Shown one piece after another: positions 6,509 through 19,703 of a stretch of DNA of 35,511 bases. Location: assembly GCA_036280495.1 (NCBI GenBank), contig DASUQU010000074.1, positions 1 to 35,511 of the forward strand. The letters run 5' to 3'. The notes under the pieces were generated by a model. That model had not been told where the DNA came from and did no database searches. It saw nothing but the letters and a program-made list of their open reading frames with translations. The position numbers were made by a program, and so were the translations under genes. How positions within the stretch are numbered: position 1 is the first letter of the stretch; the number at the start of each line of letters is the position of its first letter. The stretch comes from Thermomicrobiales bacterium (lineage in GTDB: Bacteria; Chloroflexota; Chloroflexia; Thermomicrobiales; UBA6265).

Positions 6509-7438
6509 CTAGCGGAGTCTGCGACGCCGTATGGCTCCGGTGCCGGCAAGGCCCGCTAACAGGCTCGCTGCGGCGAGCAATCCGGTGGAGAAACCGCTTG
6601 GGATTCCAGTCCCCGTTCGCGGCACTTGTACGACGCGAGGGTTCGATGACGGAAGCGACGAGCATGCTACGCCGTCACCACTTGGATCGAGGTTGTACGG
6701 ATCCGAGGGATCCTCGTCATAGACTACTTGAGCTTCCTCCTGGAACTCGAAGTCGACGCAATCGAAGTCTTCCTGGATCCGCACCGTCGTAGGCTCGTCG
6801 ATAACGACTTCTGTCGGCGCTGGATCGACTGCCTGACTGCGCCGATTGCGCCGGCGTTCCTCGCGTGTCTGAGTGGTCTCGTCTGGTTCAGCAGTAGGTT
6901 CGGCCGGCAGTAATTCCTCGCAGGCGAGACCATTGGCGTCGGGGTCCAGATCAGCCAGCCCCTCCGGGTCCGCGTCGAACGCGGCTTGCGCCTCGTCGGC
7001 AGTCGCAAAATCGGCACATGTGACCGCGGCACTCTCATCTTCGGTTGGGGTGCCTTGTTGATTCTGTTCACGAGCCGCCCGCCTTGCCGCGCGTCGCTCT
7101 TCCGGAGTCTGGTTGCCGGCATCCTGCTCGGCGGCGGGGGCACCGTCTCCGGGATCTGTTTCTGGGTCGTCGGCGGACGGGAGCAGCGCACAGGCGATGC
7201 CATCCTGGTTGGGATCGAGATTGTTGGGGTCTGCCGGATCCTCATCGAGGACTGCCTGTGCTTCTTCCTGCGTTGCGAAGTCCTCGCAGTCCAGGTCATC
7301 GGTTTGCGCGAACTTATTGATCCAATATCCCGGACCGTCGGGCGCTTCCCGATGGGCTGGAGCGACGTCCGGTCCCACCAATAACGCTGCGATGGCCAGC
7401 ACCAGGGCTAGTGATGAAATCGAGTTTGTCATCGCCAC
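6509..7438 (-). CDS. Secreted protein with three Excalibur-type calcium-binding repeats and a C-terminal LPXTG-like sorting signal
   Basis: Signal-like N-terminus MAMTNSISSLALVLAIAALLVGPDVAPA. Three repeats: CEDFATQEEAQAVLDEDPADPNNLDPNQDGIAC, CADFATADEAQAAFDADPEGLADLDPDANGLAC and CVDFEFQEEAQVVYDEDPSDPYNLDPSGDGVAC. The C-terminus has VPRTG (6611-6625), a hydrophobic stretch and RRRRLR. GTG 7438 has GGAG 6 nt upstream. Confidence 0.85.
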   Translation of the reverse strand: MAMTNSISSLALVLAIAALLVGPDVAPAHREAPDGPGYWINKFAQTDDLDCEDFATQEEAQAVLDEDPADPNNLDPNQDGIACALLPSADDPETDPGDGAPAAEQDAGNQTPEERRAARRAAREQNQQGTPTEDESAAVTCADFATADEAQAAFDADPEGLADLDPDANGLACEELLPAEPTAEPDETTQTREERRRNRRSQAVDPAPTEVVIDEPTTVRIQEDFDCVDFEFQEEAQVVYDEDPSDPYNLDPSGDGVACSSLPSSNPRVVQVPRTGTGIPSGFSTGLLAAASLLAGLAGTGAIRRRRLR

Positions 7439-7607
7439 GATTCACTCCGGCAAGACCGATGGCAATATCTGTGCCGGACATCGACCCCAGCCATGCTCAT
7501 GGACGAACGATGTTGCACGGAGGTTACGGTCACGAGCGGTTCGCGGGCAGTGTCCGTACAATGCCACGTTGCCACGACTGGTTCAATTTGGCAACCCCCA
7601 CACGCGT

Positions 7608-8066
7608 CTACGGCAAGCCAAGTGCAGCCTCGTCTGCCCATTCGCGCTCCGGGTGCAGGGCTCGCCACGTAGTTACGGCGTGAGTAAGGTCGGTAGCGAG
7701 TTGCTCGAGCTCAATCGGCGCCAAGATGACCCGGTCAGCGCCGGCCTGTTCGGCGAGTTCGGGATCGAGTTCGTCACGCGATTCGGCGATAATAAGTATT
7801 GGAATATCCGTCCGTTCGTCGGTCGTTGCCCGGTCGGAACGACCGCGCAATCGCCGCAGCAGCTCGATCGCGCCTATGCCGCCCAGTGCCGCGTCCAGGA
7901 CCATGACGTCGAACGAGCGAAGCCGGAAGACTTCGAGGGCCTGGACTCCACTGGCGATAGCACTGGTCCAGAACCCAGCATAGACCAGTCCCTCGCCGAG
8001 AAACGACGTCAGTTCGGGGTCATCACTGACGATCAGAATGTGCGGGCGCTGCAGCGCTGATGACAC
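7608..8066 (-). CDS. Stand-alone response-regulator receiver (CheY-like) domain protein, atypical
   Basis: Contains HILIVSDDPELTSFL..ALEVFRLRSFDVMVLDAALGGIGAIELLRRL..IPILIIAES..GADRVILAPIE. The acidic pocket and phospho-acceptor Asp are present. The usual K-P motif reads A-P. GTG start at 8066. No output domain. Confidence 0.8.
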   Translation of the reverse strand: MSSALQRPHILIVSDDPELTSFLGEGLVYAGFWTSAIASGVQALEVFRLRSFDVMVLDAALGGIGAIELLRRLRGRSDRATTDERTDIPILIIAESRDELDPELAEQAGADRVILAPIELEQLATDLTHAVTTWRALHPEREWADEAALGLP

Positions 8067-8163
8067 GGGCCTTCAGTTGCTCCAAATTCTGCGTATACAC
8101 GCGCCAGATGCGCTATGATGACTTCGCCCCGCACATGTTACCCATGCCCGGTGCTCAGGCGCT

Positions 8164-8742
8164 GTGGCGGAGGGGCGCTCGTCCCGGGAGATCGCCGTCG
8201 TGAGTTGGCTGGTCGATCACGAGGAAACGCGCCGGTTTCTCGAACGATACGTCGCGCGTCTCGATCTGCCGACAGAGCGTCTCCGCGTCACGACCGAGCG
8301 GCGGGAATTCGAACGTTGGCTCGGACGACGAGTGCGCGGCGCGATCGGTGGCGCTTATGCGTTTGCGCCCGCCTCAAATGAGCATCTCATATTGATCAAC
8401 TTGCCGCGCATCGATCACTCGCGACCGCGCTCAGTGGAGGTGGTGGTCGCCGAGGAGCTCCTGCACATGCGCGATCGGCTCGACGGTGATTTCCGGCGCC
8501 ACGCGAAACACGGGTACGATCGTATTGCGCATCGAGTCTCGGCTCTCACCGGGGCGACGCTCGAGGAAATTCGTGCCTCGCTTGTCCCGCCGCAGCGGCG
8601 GCAGGCACGATATCTCTATTCGTGCCCGTCCTGTGGCGTATGCGTGCCCCGACAACAGCAAGGTACATGGTCGTGTGGCCGATGCGCACCGCGGTTCGAT
8701 CCTCAGTTCATCTTGCTTTTGCAGTCGACGGCCGGGACTTGA
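8164..8742 (+). CDS. SprT-like zinc-ribbon protein with degenerate metalloprotease motif (EELLH instead of HExxH)
   Basis: VVVAEELLHMRD (8452-8466) is followed by HAKHGYDRIAH. A C-terminal ribbon reads YLYSCPSCGVCVPRQQQGTWSCGRCAPRF. This layout resembles SprT (HExxH .. HG .. two CxxC pairs). The start is GTG 8164, or GTG 8200. Confidence 0.6.
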   Translation: MAEGRSSREIAVVSWLVDHEETRRFLERYVARLDLPTERLRVTTERREFERWLGRRVRGAIGGAYAFAPASNEHLILINLPRIDHSRPRSVEVVVAEELLHMRDRLDGDFRRHAKHGYDRIAHRVSALTGATLEEIRASLVPPQRRQARYLYSCPSCGVCVPRQQQGTWSCGRCAPRFDPQFILLLQSTAGT

Positions 8743-8898
8743 CAATTGGCGCGGTGCCGAGGCGGGATTCAGGGCGGAAGCTGGCCCGCGGTGTGCTTGA
8801 TGTTCAGTGGACGGGGCTCCTGGGGATTTCCCGAGTGAGGGGATTAGCGGAACGCTGAACCTGAAGGCGACGGGGCGAGGCGTCCAGGTGGGGGAGCG

Positions 8899-9972
8899 GT
8901 GAGCAGTTGGGAACGATTCGGTGATTGGATCGCGACACTAGCTGTCGCCTCGTTCACGTGGGTCTCGGGTTTGGTCGTAGCCGGCGCGCCTGCCGGTGCT
9001 CCGGCGGCCACAGTCGATGTGCCGGCCGAGAATCAACCCACCTTGGTGATGTTGTGGGCGCAGGCGGAGGATGAGCCGCCCATCGAGCAGGTGGGCGAGG
9101 AGACAGACGGAGACGTCGAAACGCTCGACGACGCGACGCCCCCCTCGGACGAGGTCGATACGACCGAGGATGTCGAGCTCCTTGACCAGGGTCCTCTCGT
9201 CGACGACGAACAGGACGTCGAGCTCCTTGACCGGGGCTCCCAGCCGGTAACCGCTCCGGAGTCCTCGTCAGTGCCCATAGTTTCAACTGTCCCTGCGACC
9301 ACGGATGTCGCTCCGGTCGACTCCACCGTTCCGTTCGTACCAGAAGGATTCGGAACCGGCGACGTCCACGTCGCCACCGGGACCGCCGGATTCCCGGTCG
9401 GCCTCGAGGATTGCCATGTGGGTGCGGTCACCGGCCGCGCCTATGTCGGGATCGATTGTGGCGAGGGAAGCGGGAGTTCGTTCGTCGGGCACTCCCCGTC
9501 ATTCGAAGAGTTCCCGTTTGTTCTCGAGGAGAACTTCCCGTTCGATCGAGAAAGCGTCTTTGCCGATCGCGGCGAGAGTCAGTCCGAGGATAGCGTTGTG
9601 ACGTTGGTTTCTGCCGCGGGCGATACGGCCCGCAATGGCAACTCAGTTGCCCCGGAAATCCGCACATCGGGCATATCGTCGGTGGAATTCGAGCAGCGAG
9701 CGCGGGATCGCAAGCCTCGGGTCGAGACGGACAACGGTAGTTCGAAGGGGGGTAAACAGAAGCGCCGGAGCCGAAATGCCGAAGTTACGGCATCTGAGAC
9801 TCAGGATGCGGCGGGGACGGTAGCCGCGGAATCCAAGCAACAGAAGAAGGACAAGGGCAAGGACCGAATCCGGCGAGGGGCAGGCGCGGCCGGCGCTGAT
9901 GAGTCAACGAGTTCGCACGGTACCAAGAAAGACGGCGGGAAGAAGGGTAAGAAGAAACGGACCTCCAATTGA
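8899..9972 (+). CDS. Hypothetical membrane-anchored protein: one N-terminal TM, acidic low-complexity region, lysine-rich basic tail
   Basis: 357-codon ORF with GTG start and AGGTGGGGGAG upstream. The TM segment is WIATLAVASFTWVSGLVVAGA. The D/E-rich segment contains a duplicated DVELLD unit. The C-terminus reads KQQKKDKGKDRIRR...TKKDGGKKGKKKRTSN. No recognisable domain. Confidence 0.6.
   Translation: MSSWERFGDWIATLAVASFTWVSGLVVAGAPAGAPAATVDVPAENQPTLVMLWAQAEDEPPIEQVGEETDGDVETLDDATPPSDEVDTTEDVELLDQGPLVDDEQDVELLDRGSQPVTAPESSSVPIVSTVPATTDVAPVDSTVPFVPEGFGTGDVHVATGTAGFPVGLEDCHVGAVTGRAYVGIDCGEGSGSSFVGHSPSFEEFPFVLEENFPFDRESVFADRGESQSEDSVVTLVSAAGDTARNGNSVAPEIRTSGISSVEFEQRARDRKPRVETDNGSSKGGKQKRRSRNAEVTASETQDAAGTVAAESKQQKKDKGKDRIRRGAGAAGADESTSSHGTKKDGGKKGKKKRTSN
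9172..9232 (+). repeat. Intragenic direct repeat (16-nt perfect copies GTCGAGCTCCTTGACC at 9172-9187 and 9217-9232, 45 nt apart)
   Basis: Read directly from the sequence. The 45-nt period equals 15 codons and encodes EDVELLDQGP / QDVELLDRGS in the 8899..9972 ORF. Confidence 0.9.
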
Positions 9973-10093
9973 CCGAATCAAGCTGTCGAAAGCGAACAGT
10001 GCTGCCTGGATACAAGCTGGTCGCTGACTCGCCGTCTGAATCGGCTGGTGACGATATAGAAGAACAGCTGTCTGCAGCCGACGGAGAAGCAAA

Positions 10094-10978
10094 TTAGCTC
10101 ACGAAATCGGGGATGTTGTTCCCGCCATCGTCCGACGGCTCAGCCGGGCTGGTTCCACGCGTGCCCGCGGTGACATCACCGGTCTGAATGATGCTTGCAC
10201 CGTCGGGCCCAGAGACCGCGATCACGTCTCCCGAGCGAGCGAACGCAAAGCCGCCACTCGTGCTGACGTCCGCAATAACGTTGTCGCTAGCCTGCACGAT
10301 CAAGTCATTGATCGACGTTTCGGGGATATCGTCAATGAATACGTTGGGGGTTGCCGGCGTGACGGTAGTGGCATCCGGCACGCGATCCGCTGGCGCATTG
10401 TCGGGTGGCGAATCGCCCGTCGGCTCGTCGGCCTGCTGCTCGAATCGGCGAACGCGCCGGCCGCCGTGATGGTCCGGATCGTTGTCCTCTCCTGAATTGT
10501 CGCGGGACGCTGAATCCGAGTCGGCGTTTCGCCGCTGGGAGTCGCCGCGAGTCTTGCCGCCGTCCGACCCGTTCTGTTGGCTACCTTCGTCGTCTGCGCT
10601 CTGCTCCTCGTTCCCGTCCCGCTTCCGGGACTTCTCTGATTTGTCAGTCGTGCCTTTATCCTCAGCATCAGCATTAGAGTCGTTCTTGCGGCCAGCTTCT
10701 TGTTCGTTCTTAGTCTCGTCCGCCAACTCCTCTGGGTTGTCCTGAGCCGCCTCATCATTGCTGCCCTGCTCGCCGTTTCGTCGCTCCCCTCTTCGCGCAG
10801 CGGAGGCGATCTCTGGTGAAACGGTCGTGAGGCCGAGGCCGGACAGGAGCCGACCTGTCCGGGAGCGTATTCCGGCTCGAGACCCAAGTACATTCGCAAT
10901 CTTTGACCGAGGATTCAGCACGGTATCTTCCCTCTTGCCCGATCCTCTCGATGTCGACACCGACGACACAAGTCTCAA
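10094..10978 (-). CDS. Hypothetical highly charged, hydrophilic low-complexity protein
   Basis: Longest ORF in this region (294 codons, TTG start; the true start is uncertain). G/C is favoured at third codon positions. About 170 residues are D/E/N/S/G/R/K-rich (e.g. NDSNADAEDKGTTDKSEKSRKRDGNEEQSADDEGSQQNGSDGGK). The C-terminal segment is more ordered: VFIDDIPETSINDLIVQASDNVIADVSTSGGFAFARSGDVIAVSGPDGASIIQTGDV. No TM or signal peptide and no recognisable domain. Confidence 0.5.
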   Translation of the reverse strand: MRLVSSVSTSRGSGKREDTVLNPRSKIANVLGSRAGIRSRTGRLLSGLGLTTVSPEIASAARRGERRNGEQGSNDEAAQDNPEELADETKNEQEAGRKNDSNADAEDKGTTDKSEKSRKRDGNEEQSADDEGSQQNGSDGGKTRGDSQRRNADSDSASRDNSGEDNDPDHHGGRRVRRFEQQADEPTGDSPPDNAPADRVPDATTVTPATPNVFIDDIPETSINDLIVQASDNVIADVSTSGGFAFARSGDVIAVSGPDGASIIQTGDVTAGTRGTSPAEPSDDGGNNIPDFVS

Positions 10979-11331
10979 CTATTAACCGCGTGGAGACCAG
11001 GGGGTAGGTCTGTCCCTGGCTGCAAACGAAGAGTTTGCTCTAGCCGTTTCCTTGCCGGCACCACTGAACGCAGGGCACTTGACCAGTTTATCACCACTGC
11101 CGGTTCCCCGGGTCCGGATTTCGCGCGTACGTACGCATCCGGGCGCTGGCATGATGGAATTGCTCGACTGAAACAACCTGTCGACGGGACCTTGCGTTGT
11201 TTGTCCAGGGCCGGGAGGCCTATGGAAGATGACGCGATTCTTGCCCAAGATACGCCAGGCTTGCCCTGGTTGCATCGGGTTCGTAGTCTTGCCAGTAGCG
11301 GTAAGCCAGCGACTGTGCGACGAGGGTGGCC

Positions 11332-11607
11332 ATGAGTCTGTCGCGGGGGCGGGGCCAGATAAGGACGGAACGGGGACGAGTAGTGGTGGTTGCCCGGTGC
11401 CCGCTGTGTGGCGAAGAGCACCGGTATGACAAAGGAGAGGCCGGCGGGGAAGAGATCGAAACCCTGCGTAAGGTCGGCTACACCGATGAGTGGCTCCCGT
11501 GTCAGATGGACTTGCCTGGGAACTTCTGGCGAATTGTAATCACCGGCAGCCGACAGGGAGCGAAACATGAATCACCGCGCCGCCACCGGAGGGCCAAAGG
11601 AAAGTGA
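11332..11607 (+). CDS. Small hypothetical CxxC protein with basic tail, translationally coupled to the TrmH-like gene
   Basis: ATG 11332 is preceded by GAGGGTGG. The sequence reads ..VVVVARCPLCGEEHRYDKGEAGGEEIETLRKVGYTDEWLPCQMDLPGNFWRIVITG..RRHRRAKGK. Its TGA (11605-11607) overlaps the GTG (11604) of the next gene (GTGA). Confidence 0.45.
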   Translation: MSLSRGRGQIRTERGRVVVVARCPLCGEEHRYDKGEAGGEEIETLRKVGYTDEWLPCQMDLPGNFWRIVITGSRQGAKHESPRRHRRAKGK

Positions 11608-12808: not shown

Positions 12809-13363
12809 CTAAAACTGAAGGACAATCGACTGATTTTCCCCGTCCCGGATGTACTTTGCGGTCGCTTGGTCTCCGGCCTTGAGGGTCTCAACCATCTGGT
12901 CGAGCGCGGTCATCGTCCGCACCCGTTTCCCGGCGAAGCTAGTGATGATGTCTCCAGGCTTGAGACCTCCCCGGGCAGCGACGGTCTTCGGTCGGACATT
13001 GCCGACATAGACGCCTTTTGTTCCGGCGGGGACCTTCTCCGCTTTCTCCGGATGCTTGGCCAGATACTCTTCGGCATCCGCGGCCAGAATCCCGAGCGGG
13101 GGCCGCTTCGGACCCGCGAACTTTTCCGCTAGCTTCGCGAATTTCCGCTGGTCGAATCCCAGAATGACGTCGCCATTGGCGACAGTGACTGGCACGCCTT
13201 GTTGACCGCTGATGCGAATCATCTCCATCGCCGCCTGGTAGTCCTTGGCGACGTCCTTTTCAACGAAGGGGACTTTGTTTCGGCTAAGGAACTCCTTAGC
13301 TCTATCGCACCATGGTCAGGTGTTGGTGGTGTAAACGGTGACCTGAGGAGCAGCGTCCGTCAT
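12809..13363 (-). CDS. Glutaredoxin-like (YruB/NrdH-type) + PDZ fusion protein with in-frame UGA at the first redox-Cys position (candidate selenoprotein, U-P-W-C)
   Basis: The track lists only 12809..13228. The same frame continues upstream with no other stop. It reads ATG 13363 (AAGAGGA RBS) MTDAAPQVTVYTTNT-TGA(13318..13316)-PWCDRAKEFLSRNKVPFVEKDVAKDYQAAMEMIRISGQQGVPVTVANGDVILGFD. A linker and PDZ follow (GVYVGNVRPKTVAARGGLKPGDIITSFAGKRV..). I verified this codon by codon. Confidence 0.7.
13283..13300 (-). promoter_or_regulatory. SECIS-like stem-loop downstream of the in-frame UGA
   Basis: The minus-strand RNA is GCUAAGG-AGUU-CCUUAGC, a perfect 7-bp stem with a 4-nt loop containing G and U. 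The stem starts 15 nt after the UGA, and the apical loop starts 25 nt from the U of the UGA. Confidence 0.5.
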
Positions 13364-13480
13364 CGATATCCTCTTTACTCCGGGGCGGCCGGTTCACGCT
13401 CGTCGATCCAATGCCGCTCCGGTCGAATCACTGGCTCCATGGTACCAGTAGCGGTCCAATCGTCCGTGCGACGCCGGTCC

Positions 13481-15121: not shown

Positions 15122-15580
15122 TTAGATGTCCGGGCCTTGGTGACCGAGATAGAGATAGGTCTGATCGAACTCCCACTCCGGGATCGTCTCGATGTCGACT
15201 TCAACTCGCGGGCGAAGGGGGTCGATCTTCTTCGAGAGGTGGAGATCGACGACCGCGCGGTCGTCGAAGCCGATTGTCCGAGCAAGGGCGTCCAAGCAGA
15301 TTTTCAGGCCGCCGTCGAGGTCCCTTCGGTGCGGCGTCTCAAAAAAATACACGAGGTATATGCCGAGGAGCGAACTCGCTAACGCCTGCTCGGTCACCGG
15401 CGAGAGTTGGCCACTGGTTCGCTGCGCCGCGATCAACTTGGCGACATCACGGTTGAAGGTTTTTGCCGGCGCGCTGAGGACCCTCCGCCGGCCCACGCTC
15501 ACGTACTGGTTATTCACTCCAGGCGGTAGCGGCAGGAGGATCTGAAACCTAATTACCGGTCGGGCTGCAATGCGCTGCAT
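15122..15580 (-). CDS. rusA: RusA-family crossover-junction endodeoxyribonuclease (Holliday-junction resolvase)-like protein
   Basis: Contains ILLPLPPGVNNQYVSVGRRRVLSAPAKTF and the catalytic-region pattern RRDLDGGLKICLDALARTIGFDDRAVVDLHLSK. This matches the RusA D-x-D..K..DA...DD signature. The protein is 152 aa. Confidence 0.7.
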   Translation of the reverse strand: MQRIAARPVIRFQILLPLPPGVNNQYVSVGRRRVLSAPAKTFNRDVAKLIAAQRTSGQLSPVTEQALASSLLGIYLVYFFETPHRRDLDGGLKICLDALARTIGFDDRAVVDLHLSKKIDPLRPRVEVDIETIPEWEFDQTYLYLGHQGPDI

Positions 15581-17630: not shown

Positions 17631-19703
17631 GTGCCCAATCGCCTGGCTGCCGAAACCAGTCCGTACCTGCTCCAGCATGCGGAGAATCCCGTCGACTGGT
17701 ACCCGTGGGGAGACGAGGCCCTGACCAAAGCTCGCTTAGAGGACAAGCCAATCTTGGTCAGCGTCGGCTACTCCGCCTGCCACTGGTGCCATGTCATGGA
17801 GCACGAGTCGTTCGAGAACGAAGAGATCGCGGCGACGATGAACGACCTCTTCGTCAACATCAAGGTCGACCGGGAGGAGCGCCCGGACCTCGACTCGCTC
17901 TACATGTCCGCTGTGCAATCGATGACAGGGCACGGCGGCTGGCCGCTCAACGTGTTCCTGACACCGGATGGCACTCCCTTTTACGGCGGAACCTATTTCC
18001 CTCCTGAGGACCGCATGGGGATGCCTGGATTTCCAAAGGTCCTGGAAGCGGTCGCCAGTGCATTCAAGGAGCGACGGGAGGAGGTCGAGGAGAACGCGCA
18101 GCAGATCCGTAGCCTTCTACAGCGAGCGACGAAAGAGCTGCCAAAGCCCGATGACCTCACCCCGGAGCTCCTCGCGGAGGCATCCGAGCAGCTCGCCCAC
18201 TCATTCGATGCCCGCAACGGTGGATTCGGGGGAGCACCCAAGTTTCCGCAGCCAGCCGCGATCGAATTCTTGCTGCGGCACGATAAGCGCGGCGGCCAGC
18301 GAGAAGCGATCATGGTGCAGCGGACGCTCGACCGCATGGCCAGCGGCGGTATCTATGACCAGATCGGCGGCGGCTTTCACCGCTACGCTGTCGACGCGAT
18401 CTGGCTCGTACCGCACTTCGAGAAGATGCTCTATGACAACGCGCAACTCGCCTCCGTCTACCTTGCGGGGTTTCAAGCGTACGGTGACGAGCGTTACCGG
18501 CAGGTCGCCGAGGAGACACTCGACTTCGTTGCGCGCGAGCTAACCGATCCAGATGGTGGATTCTATGCCACGCTGGACGCCGATACCGCGGGACACGAAG
18601 GCCTCTTTTACACCTGGACGACCGAAGAATTGGACGAGGCGCTCGGCGAGGAAGACACCGCGATCGCCAAGCGATGGTTCAACGTCGAACCCGCCGGCAA
18701 TTTCGAAGGGCGTACGGTACTGGCCACACCGCGCACGGCCGCCGATATAGCCGACCGGCTCGGGGTCAGCGAAGCGGCGCTGATGGAATCGCTCGTTCGC
18801 GTCAAGCAGCGTTTGCTGGAAGTACGGGAGCAGAGAGAACGCCCGGGTCGGGATGAGAAAGTCATAACGGCCTGGAACGGGCTCATGTTGAGAGCGTTCG
18901 CCGACGGTTCGCGAATTCTCCATCGGGACGATTTTCGCGGTGTGGCAGAAAGGAATGCCGAATTCGTTCTCGAGCACTTGCAACGAGACGGCCGCCTCCT
19001 TCGCAGTTGGAAGAACAGCGACGCTCGCATTGGTGGCTTCCTCGAGGACTACGCCTTCTTCATTGACGGTCTGCTCGCACTCTATCGGGCGACGCTTGAC
19101 GTCCGCTGGCTGGATGAGGCGATGCGGCTCGCGGAGGTGATGGTGGCGGAGTTTGCCGATCCGGCTGGAGTAGGCTTCTTCGACACAAGCGCGAGCCACG
19201 AGACCCCCGTCGCGCGTCCGCGGGATCTCCACGACGGCGCAACGCCCTCCGGCAATTCAGTGGCGGCGGAGGTGCTATTACGGCTGGGAGCCCTGACCGC
19301 CAATGAGGACTATTCTGCTCGTGCCAGCGAGTTGCTGCGGACGATGGCGAGCACGATGCGCGAGCACCCACTCGCCGCTGGTCGTTATCTCAGTGCAGTC
19401 GACTTCTATCTGGGACCGGTGAAGGAAGTCGCGCTGGCAGGAGACCGCGATAGCCCGGACCTGCAAGCATTGCTGAATGCACTGTACGACGAATTTGAAC
19501 CGAATGTCATCGTGGGCTATGTCGATCAGGATCGAGGCGACCTAACAGACCGGTTGCCGTTCCTTCAAGATCGACCACCTCGCGACGGACGCGCCACGGC
19601 CTACGTCTGTGAGCACTTTGCCTGCCTGCCGCCAGTGCACGATCCCGAAGGGCTGCTCCGGCAACTGAACGAGGGAACCGGGATCAGCTGGAGAGATTTC
19701 TGA
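17631..19703 (+). CDS. Thioredoxin-domain protein of the DUF255/YyaL family (thioredoxin-like N-domain + six-hairpin alpha/alpha domain)
   Basis: Contains [86 protein letters not shown] and [25 protein letters not shown] start at 17631. Confidence 0.9.

Follow-up and report, generated by a model that had tools for sequence, protein, structure and literature searches.

A hairpin with arms GCUAAGG and CCUUAGC and an AGUU loop lies 15 nt downstream of an in-frame UGA on the minus strand of the window (the whole stretch of DNA analysed, 35,511 nucleotides of a Thermomicrobiales contig). We consider it very probable that this hairpin is, as the sequence-only reading of this DNA had proposed, a bacterial SECIS, here inside the coding sequence of a glutaredoxin-PDZ protein. 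It is the comparison of orthologues that establishes this interpretation. The gene also probably represents a widespread, unrecognised subfamily of glutaredoxin-PDZ selenoproteins in soil Thermomicrobiales and Chloroflexia, in which a bulge-free, 18-nt SECIS is frozen in sequence across orthologues that are only ~55-65% identical, and which has undergone at least eight conversions to Cys.

The glutaredoxin-PDZ gene and its in-frame UGA

The gene, its protein domains and the parts of the hairpin are listed below.

12809..13363 (-), coding sequence of the glutaredoxin-PDZ protein, 184 codons, from the ATG at 13363-13361 through the TGA at codon 16 to the TAG at 12811-12809
13369..13375 (-), Shine-Dalgarno-like AAGAGGA, whose GAGG core ends 6 nt 5' of the ATG at 13363
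Residues 8-67, glutaredoxin domain (PF00462; E = 9.6e-17, 61.4 bits against a cut-off of 22.9)
12824..13036 (-), PDZ domain, residues 110-180 (PDZ_2, PF13180; E = 6.8e-15)
13316..13318 (-), in-frame UGA, codon 16 of 184, read here as selenocysteine and as the first residue of U-P-W-C
13307..13309 (-), TGC of the resolving cysteine of UxxC; TGC/TGT is invariant across all orthologues
13301..13315 (-), 15-nt spacer between UGA and stem, CCATGGTGCGATAGA, with freely varying synonymous sites
13294..13300 (-), 5' arm of the putative SECIS stem, GCUAAGG, based on the sequence, the ViennaRNA fold, orthologue pairing and RNAalifold
13290..13293 (-), apical loop AGUU, invariant in all TGA forms
13283..13289 (-), 3' arm of the putative SECIS stem, CCUUAGC, on the same basis as the 5' arm, with compensatory changes in orthologues

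Pfam was run on the translation with Cys replacing the TGA. A PDB sequence search returned the first PDZ domain of DegP (DegP PDZ1, E = 3e-15) and glutaredoxin 7c10 (E = 5e-14). The TGA occupies the first position of the redox motif, and the U-P-W-C column aligns with the C-P-W-C of Cys homologues. Full-length relatives found by protein search were 183-185 aa long, carried C-P-W-C and were 72-81% identical to the window protein. The same search returned numerous short 'PDZ' relatives of 137-154 aa, 84-99% identical, starting at varied internal codons. In public gene calls the products are 128 to 154 aa long and are named 'PDZ domain-containing protein', 'S1-C subfamily serine protease' or 'serine protease Do'; one 90%-identity cluster holds 306 members under the truncated annotation, for which the window counterpart is 12809-13228 (-). 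The internal starts are GTG, ATG or TTG at different codons, and such inconsistency between contigs is as expected of artefacts. Gene callers use an internal ATG at 13228, but the Shine-Dalgarno-like sequence at 13369..13375 sets the start 5' of the TGA instead. Codons -8 to -1 (V-T-V-Y-T-T-x-T) are conserved at the protein level with synonymous change, and the protein is likewise conserved with synonymous variation over codons +12 to +29. These substitution patterns indicate that coding constraint spans both sides of the TGA and that translation probably crosses it. The short public PDZ products are systematic mis-annotations that represent the C-terminal parts of the putative glutaredoxin-PDZ selenoprotein.

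If the TGA were instead a real stop, the locus would be a pseudogene or a split gene, with a PDZ fragment made from an internal start and a hairpin that acts in mRNA stability or re-initiation. The PDZ-sized products in public gene calls agree with such an arrangement, as does the use of TGA as an ordinary stop elsewhere in the window. It is nevertheless extremely unlikely, given that in 54 independent contigs the TGA coincides exactly with the catalytic Cys of CxxC, that protein-level constraint with synonymous change is found both upstream of the TGA and between the TGA and the internal starts, that the upstream ATG has a Shine-Dalgarno sequence and that the internal starts differ between gene calls. 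TGA ends 9 of the 21 other Pfam-verified genes in the window; the codon is therefore not reassigned and the genetic code is standard. Reassignment of TGA was accordingly rejected as an explanation for the in-frame codon.

Neighbouring genes include guaA, an MgtC-family gene and a SpoU methylase. A gene for a RusA-family Holliday-junction resolvase, a type that usually derives from prophages, stands by itself at 15122-15580 (-), flanked by guaA and a metallo-beta-lactamase-fold gene. A second thiol-redox protein, a 690-aa thioredoxin-domain protein of the DUF255/DsbH family (PF03190, E = 1.3e-79), is encoded at 17631-19703 (+), ~4 kb from the glutaredoxin-PDZ gene. No Pfam match was obtained for the ORFs at 7113-8060, 8164-8742, 8899-9972 and 10094-10978 or for the stretch 10975-11600, and across the region 7113-11600 ORFs overlap heavily on both strands.

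The hairpin in the window and in TGA-containing orthologues

Read directly from the minus strand, positions 13318-13283 comprise the TGA, the spacer, GCTAAGG, AGTT and CCTTAGC, and are followed by CGAAAC. The perfect 7-bp stem (13300-13294 / 13289-13283), its AGUU loop and the 15-nt distance from the UGA are exactly as the sequence-only reading had given them. The G and U of the loop lie 27 and 28 nt from the U of the UGA and may together form the contact for SelB. ViennaRNA formed the hairpin within a 52-nt context (MFE -12.8 kcal/mol), and the 18-nt hairpin by itself had an energy of -9.0 kcal/mol.

Considered alone, the hairpin is weak evidence and only mildly unusual. The 52-nt fold had a z-score of -2.0, and 6 of 200 dinucleotide shuffles were equally stable. 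Perfect 7-bp stems with loops of 3-9 nt occur 46 times in the window (1.3 per kb), compared to 27 +/- 7 times in shuffles. A scan of the window with loose published SECIS criteria found 17 sites with a TGA and a qualifying hairpin, showing that the structural model alone is non-specific; 16 of these were in frames without gene support, and the exception was the glutaredoxin-PDZ TGA. Since similar hairpins are common in the window, the earlier claim that the palindrome is unlikely to be incidental could not be established from this sequence by itself, and it is through the orthologues that it held.

At the gathering score, no Rfam family matched anywhere in the window. In a permissive Rfam scan of 13150-13450 (E up to 10), no match overlapped the hairpin, and three weak matches in this interval (Actino-ugpB, bxd_2 and 5.8S) were judged to be due to chance. 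A lower stem pairing the UGA region, present in the single-sequence fold, was dropped because RNAalifold showed no conservation of it. Among the fetched loci, the hairpin core AAGGAGTTCCTT recurs once, as CCAAGGAGTTCCTTGG at L033:4960-4980. This copy is without a UGA and is found on the antisense strand of an AhpD-like gene (peptide KELLG, motif C-D-D-C); it was therefore rejected as a SECIS and judged to be a coincidence.

Orthologous DNA was fetched using scan patterns placed outside the hairpin, so that the choice of patterns introduced no bias on the hairpin result. The genome scan yielded 35 orthologous loci, all from MAGs of Thermomicrobiales, Chloroflexia or Sphaerobacteraceae, and the metagenome scan yielded 69 further loci, of which 59 covered the active-site region. 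Across 94 sequences, including the window's own, the active-site codon was TGA in 54 and TGC or TGT in 40. The 54 TGA forms gave 44 distinct 72-nt segments, which make up alignment A2; alignment A3 consists of 36 distinct Cys segments.

The perfect 7-bp stem and the AGUU loop were found in register in 54 of 54 TGA orthologues, and the hairpin was also present in a 55th copy, L078, which is cut by the contig end. Three versions of the stem occur among the TGA forms: GCUAAGG/CCUUAGC, GCGAAGG/CCUUCGC and ACUAAGG/CCUUAGU. In A2 all 308 of 308 pair cells were paired (100%) compared to 96.3% in shuffles, and none of 500 shuffles reached 100%; slid controls were 32-68% paired. Compensatory double changes were observed at pair 3 (13298/13285), with both sides changed from U-A to G-C in six distinct sequences, and at pair 1 (13300/13283), changed from G-C to A-U in L095. 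Each variant comes with, or at the cost of, an amino-acid substitution (Ser to Arg, Ala to Thr). That the stem pair was kept despite the change in amino acid shows that pairing in the RNA outranked the protein sequence. The other five of the seven pairs show no variation and are therefore uninformative on pairing, so the compensatory evidence comes from two pairs. Unprompted, RNAalifold predicted exactly the hairpin helix and no other from the TGA forms. It predicted no conserved pairing within the 15-nt spacer, whose five codons have third-position entropies of 0.4-1.4 bit in the TGA set.

Codon usage in the TGA forms showed the same restriction to the hairpin. Third-codon-position entropy was 0.13 bit over the six hairpin codons compared to 1.29 bit over 157 other codons, and the only four codons with zero third-position variation all lie within the hairpin. 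At a genomic G+C content of 62%, the hairpin codons of these forms include GCT and CTT. AKEFL is the conserved peptide throughout the TGA forms. The expectation of the sequence-only reading that TGA-containing orthologues would keep the stem-loop by compensatory change was thus borne out, with two pairs showing such changes.

Just 5' of the stem, Arg codon 21 (13301-13303 (-)) is AGA in 30 of 47 distinct TGA forms from several clades. Among the Cys forms it is CGC or CGG, and AGA in none. The preference for AGA could reflect shared ancestry, or an unpaired purine could be favoured next to the helix.

Hairpin loss in cysteine-containing orthologues

The hairpin was absent from 38 of 40 Cys orthologues. 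The same columns in A3 were 61% paired, which is the level of shuffles, and the mean hairpin energy was -3.0 kcal/mol in Cys forms compared to -9.2 kcal/mol in TGA forms. Third-position entropy in the Cys forms was 1.30 bit at the hairpin codons and 1.39 bit elsewhere, and the codons used at the hairpin site were mostly GCC or GCG, and CTG. The peptide is free to vary in these forms, with AKAYL, AKQYL, AKSYL and others present. As anticipated by the sequence-only reading, the Cys orthologues as a group do not keep the hairpin; two of them, L083 and L084, retain the stem with a mutated loop G.

These data bear on whether the palindrome simply reflects, at the nucleotide level, a conserved peptide (A-K-E-F-L-S) of the helix that follows the active site, and has no function in RNA. 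Such an origin would account for the presence of AKEFL in all TGA forms and for the five invariant stem pairs, and hairpins of similar size are indeed common in the window. However, in three Cys forms (L021, L104 and L100) the same AKEFL is encoded by other codons, which disrupt the stem; the peptide therefore does not force the hairpin. The synonymous sites of the hairpin are frozen in TGA forms only, at each of the two variable pairs both sides always change together with pairing kept and at an amino-acid cost, and the peptide itself varies freely in Cys forms. The incidental origin is largely refuted by these observations and is scarcely credible, leaving the SECIS as the preferred interpretation.

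The two Cys forms that retain a stem, L083 (1540-1611) and L084 (151-222), have a perfect 7-bp stem, GCGAAGG/CCUUCGC, and the loop AUUU, in which the G is lost. Their motif is C-S-W-C-G, they are 81% identical to the window protein and they are nested in its own clade. Their hairpin looks like a SECIS relic: Sec would have given way to Cys recently, and the loop G would have been the first element to go. At the hairpin site of L021 there is one mismatch, one wobble pair and the loop AAUU, and the L083/L084 and L021 states look like successive stages of SECIS decay. Within the glutaredoxin-PDZ subfamily, the decay series would probably run from an intact stem with the loop G lost, through a broken stem encoding the same peptide, to a peptide that is free to vary.

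Neighbour-joining protein trees were built without the hairpin region and with 30 bootstrap replicates. Sec and Cys forms were interleaved on these trees, and parsimony required at least eight switches, the bootstrap minimum also being eight. Because the hairpin sequence is common to the Sec clades, repeated Sec-to-Cys loss from a Sec ancestor is the simplest reading, suggesting that the direction of switching was from Sec to Cys. At stem pair 3, the G-C variant is scattered over at least three distinct parts of the tree.

One Cys form (L019, JASGGF010000041.1; protein P0117) has C-P-W-C, is 159 aa long and probably carries a frameshift near its C-terminus. Its NCBI name is 'Uxx-star family glutaredoxin-like (seleno)protein', yet it is not of the Uxx-star type.

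Decoding of the UGA and comparison with known systems

In bacterial Sec insertion, SelB-GTP-Sec-tRNA(Sec) binds the SECIS loop via the C-terminal winged-helix domains of SelB and competes with release factor 2 (RF2). What is established for E. coli and Moorella suggests the following course of SelB binding and selenium incorporation, and the following geometry on the ribosome, for the window gene. With the UGA of codon 16 in the A site, the hairpin 15 nt downstream would be located just outside the mRNA entry channel. The AGUU loop, with G and U at loop positions 2 and 3, would be bound by the winged-helix domains, and SelB with GTP would deliver Sec-tRNA(Sec) and outcompete RF2. The product would be the full-length protein of 184 residues with U-P-W-C instead of C-P-W-C at its active site. 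It would combine a glutaredoxin carrying a selenolate nucleophile with a tethered PDZ domain; a presumed role of the latter, which is speculation, is to select the substrate, a peptide or a protein. The mechanism is ordinary, and the understanding of Sec insertion is unchanged by it.

No selA, selB, selD or tRNA-Sec gene was found in the 35.5-kb window or in 138 fetched loci. Pfam scans of 30 window ORFs gave no SelA, SelB or SelD, and ARAGORN found no tRNA whatsoever in the window and no tRNA-Sec in the 138 loci. A C after UGA is a weak termination context, and UGA-C is leaky. Together with the missing equivalent of the E. coli bulged U, these points would fit a UGA that is decoded without SelB, the hairpin stimulating near-cognate read-through by Trp or Cys, or ribosome pausing. 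We consider this very unlikely, as the TGA stands at the redox-active residue, a position at which selenoprotein families as a rule exchange Sec and Cys, and a Trp at the catalytic position would inactivate the glutaredoxin. Moreover, the G-U needed for SelB binding is kept in the loop and its G is lost in the Cys relics, and relatives of the same order have SelA, SelB and SelD. SelB-dependent insertion of Sec is hence the reading we retain. The cultured relatives Sphaerobacter thermophilus, Thermomicrobium roseum and Nitrolancea hollandica possess SelD, SelA and SelB and have 9, 5 and 8 predicted selenoproteins, respectively (PMC5029168, Tables S1 and S2). They lend support to Sec decoding of the window gene at the level of the lineage only.

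If the proposed subfamily is real, it would offer a natural series for the death of a SECIS and for the nucleotides needed by the SelB of this lineage. The selenoprotein interpretation would also correct a database-wide annotation error, add a fusion architecture to the Sec-glutaredoxin family and show that aerobic Chloroflexota abundant in soil make use of selenoproteins. With Sec and Cys forms interleaved and hairpins in decay, the orthologues are a clean textbook case of SECIS constraint overlaid on a coding sequence, and the series could help to train selenoprotein gene finders.

Sec-containing glutaredoxins with UxxC are an established selenoprotein family (PMC13188914), with examples from Clostridium oremlandii and Geobacter sulfurreducens (cited in PMC13188914 and PMC1794560). 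Like these, the window protein has a glutaredoxin fold in which Sec replaces the N-terminal Cys of CxxC, and Cys homologues exist. What sets it apart from the cited proteins is the DegP-like PDZ domain joined to the C-terminal side of its glutaredoxin, and a host among the aerobic soil Thermomicrobiales. In the text of the 2026 review (PMC13188914), 'PDZ' occurs only as the Trx7/PDZ family with CxxU. No description of a glutaredoxin-PDZ selenoprotein was found in text searches of this review and of the deep-Sep and BSepDB papers, or in full-text literature searches. The glutaredoxin-like domain matches two NCBIfam models below their curated cut-offs: NF041212, the Uxx-star glutaredoxin-like (seleno)protein (63.3 bits, cut-off 66), and TIGR02196, the YruB-family glutaredoxin-like model (81.4 bits, cut-off 88.55). 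By the curated cut-off, the protein is thus outside NF041212. The Uxx-star name suggests a Sec three residues before the C-terminus, whereas Sec in the window protein would be at the N-terminal active site, with 168 residues following.

The bacterial SECIS model of bSECISearch (Zhang and Gladyshev 2005), as summarised in PMC13188914, allows 3-9 nt in the apical loop, 4-16 bp in the upper stem, 16-37 nt from UGA to loop and an energy of at most -7.5 kcal/mol, with a G within the first two loop positions that is usually followed by G or U. The model used in the sequence-only reading, with the loop 16-37 nt from the UGA and a G then U, agrees with this summary. In the hairpin the loop is 4 nt long, the stem is 7 bp without a mismatch, and the distance from UGA to loop is 22 nt (15 nt of spacer and 7 nt of arm). 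Its energies are -9.0 kcal/mol for the 18-nt hairpin and -12.8 kcal/mol in the 52-nt context, and the G is at position 2 of A-G-U-U, followed by U. It is located inside the coding sequence, 3' of the in-frame UGA and 15 nt after codon 16. Its structure is kept with compensatory changes in Sec orthologues and is not needed in Cys orthologues (100% compared to 61% paired). The hairpin therefore differs from the model in no defining criterion, as the sequence-only reading had claimed, and represents a minimal version of it: 18 nt, perfect and lacking a conserved lower stem.

In the E. coli fdhF SECIS, U17 is bulged, the loop carries G23 and U24, and the upper stem-loop is located 11 nt from the UGA (PMC8659212). 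The hairpin resembles it in being a stem-loop 3' of the UGA with an apical G-U (G27 and U28 here) and in its presumed recognition by SelB. It differs in its AGUU loop and in that a lower helix including the UGA is not conserved. Of the fdhF-type features, namely a 5' arm with a bulged U and an 11-nt distance to the upper stem-loop, the hairpin has neither: it lacks an equivalent of U17, and its spacer is 15 nt. With no bulge and this longer spacer, the hairpin fits the general bacterial model rather than the fdhF type.
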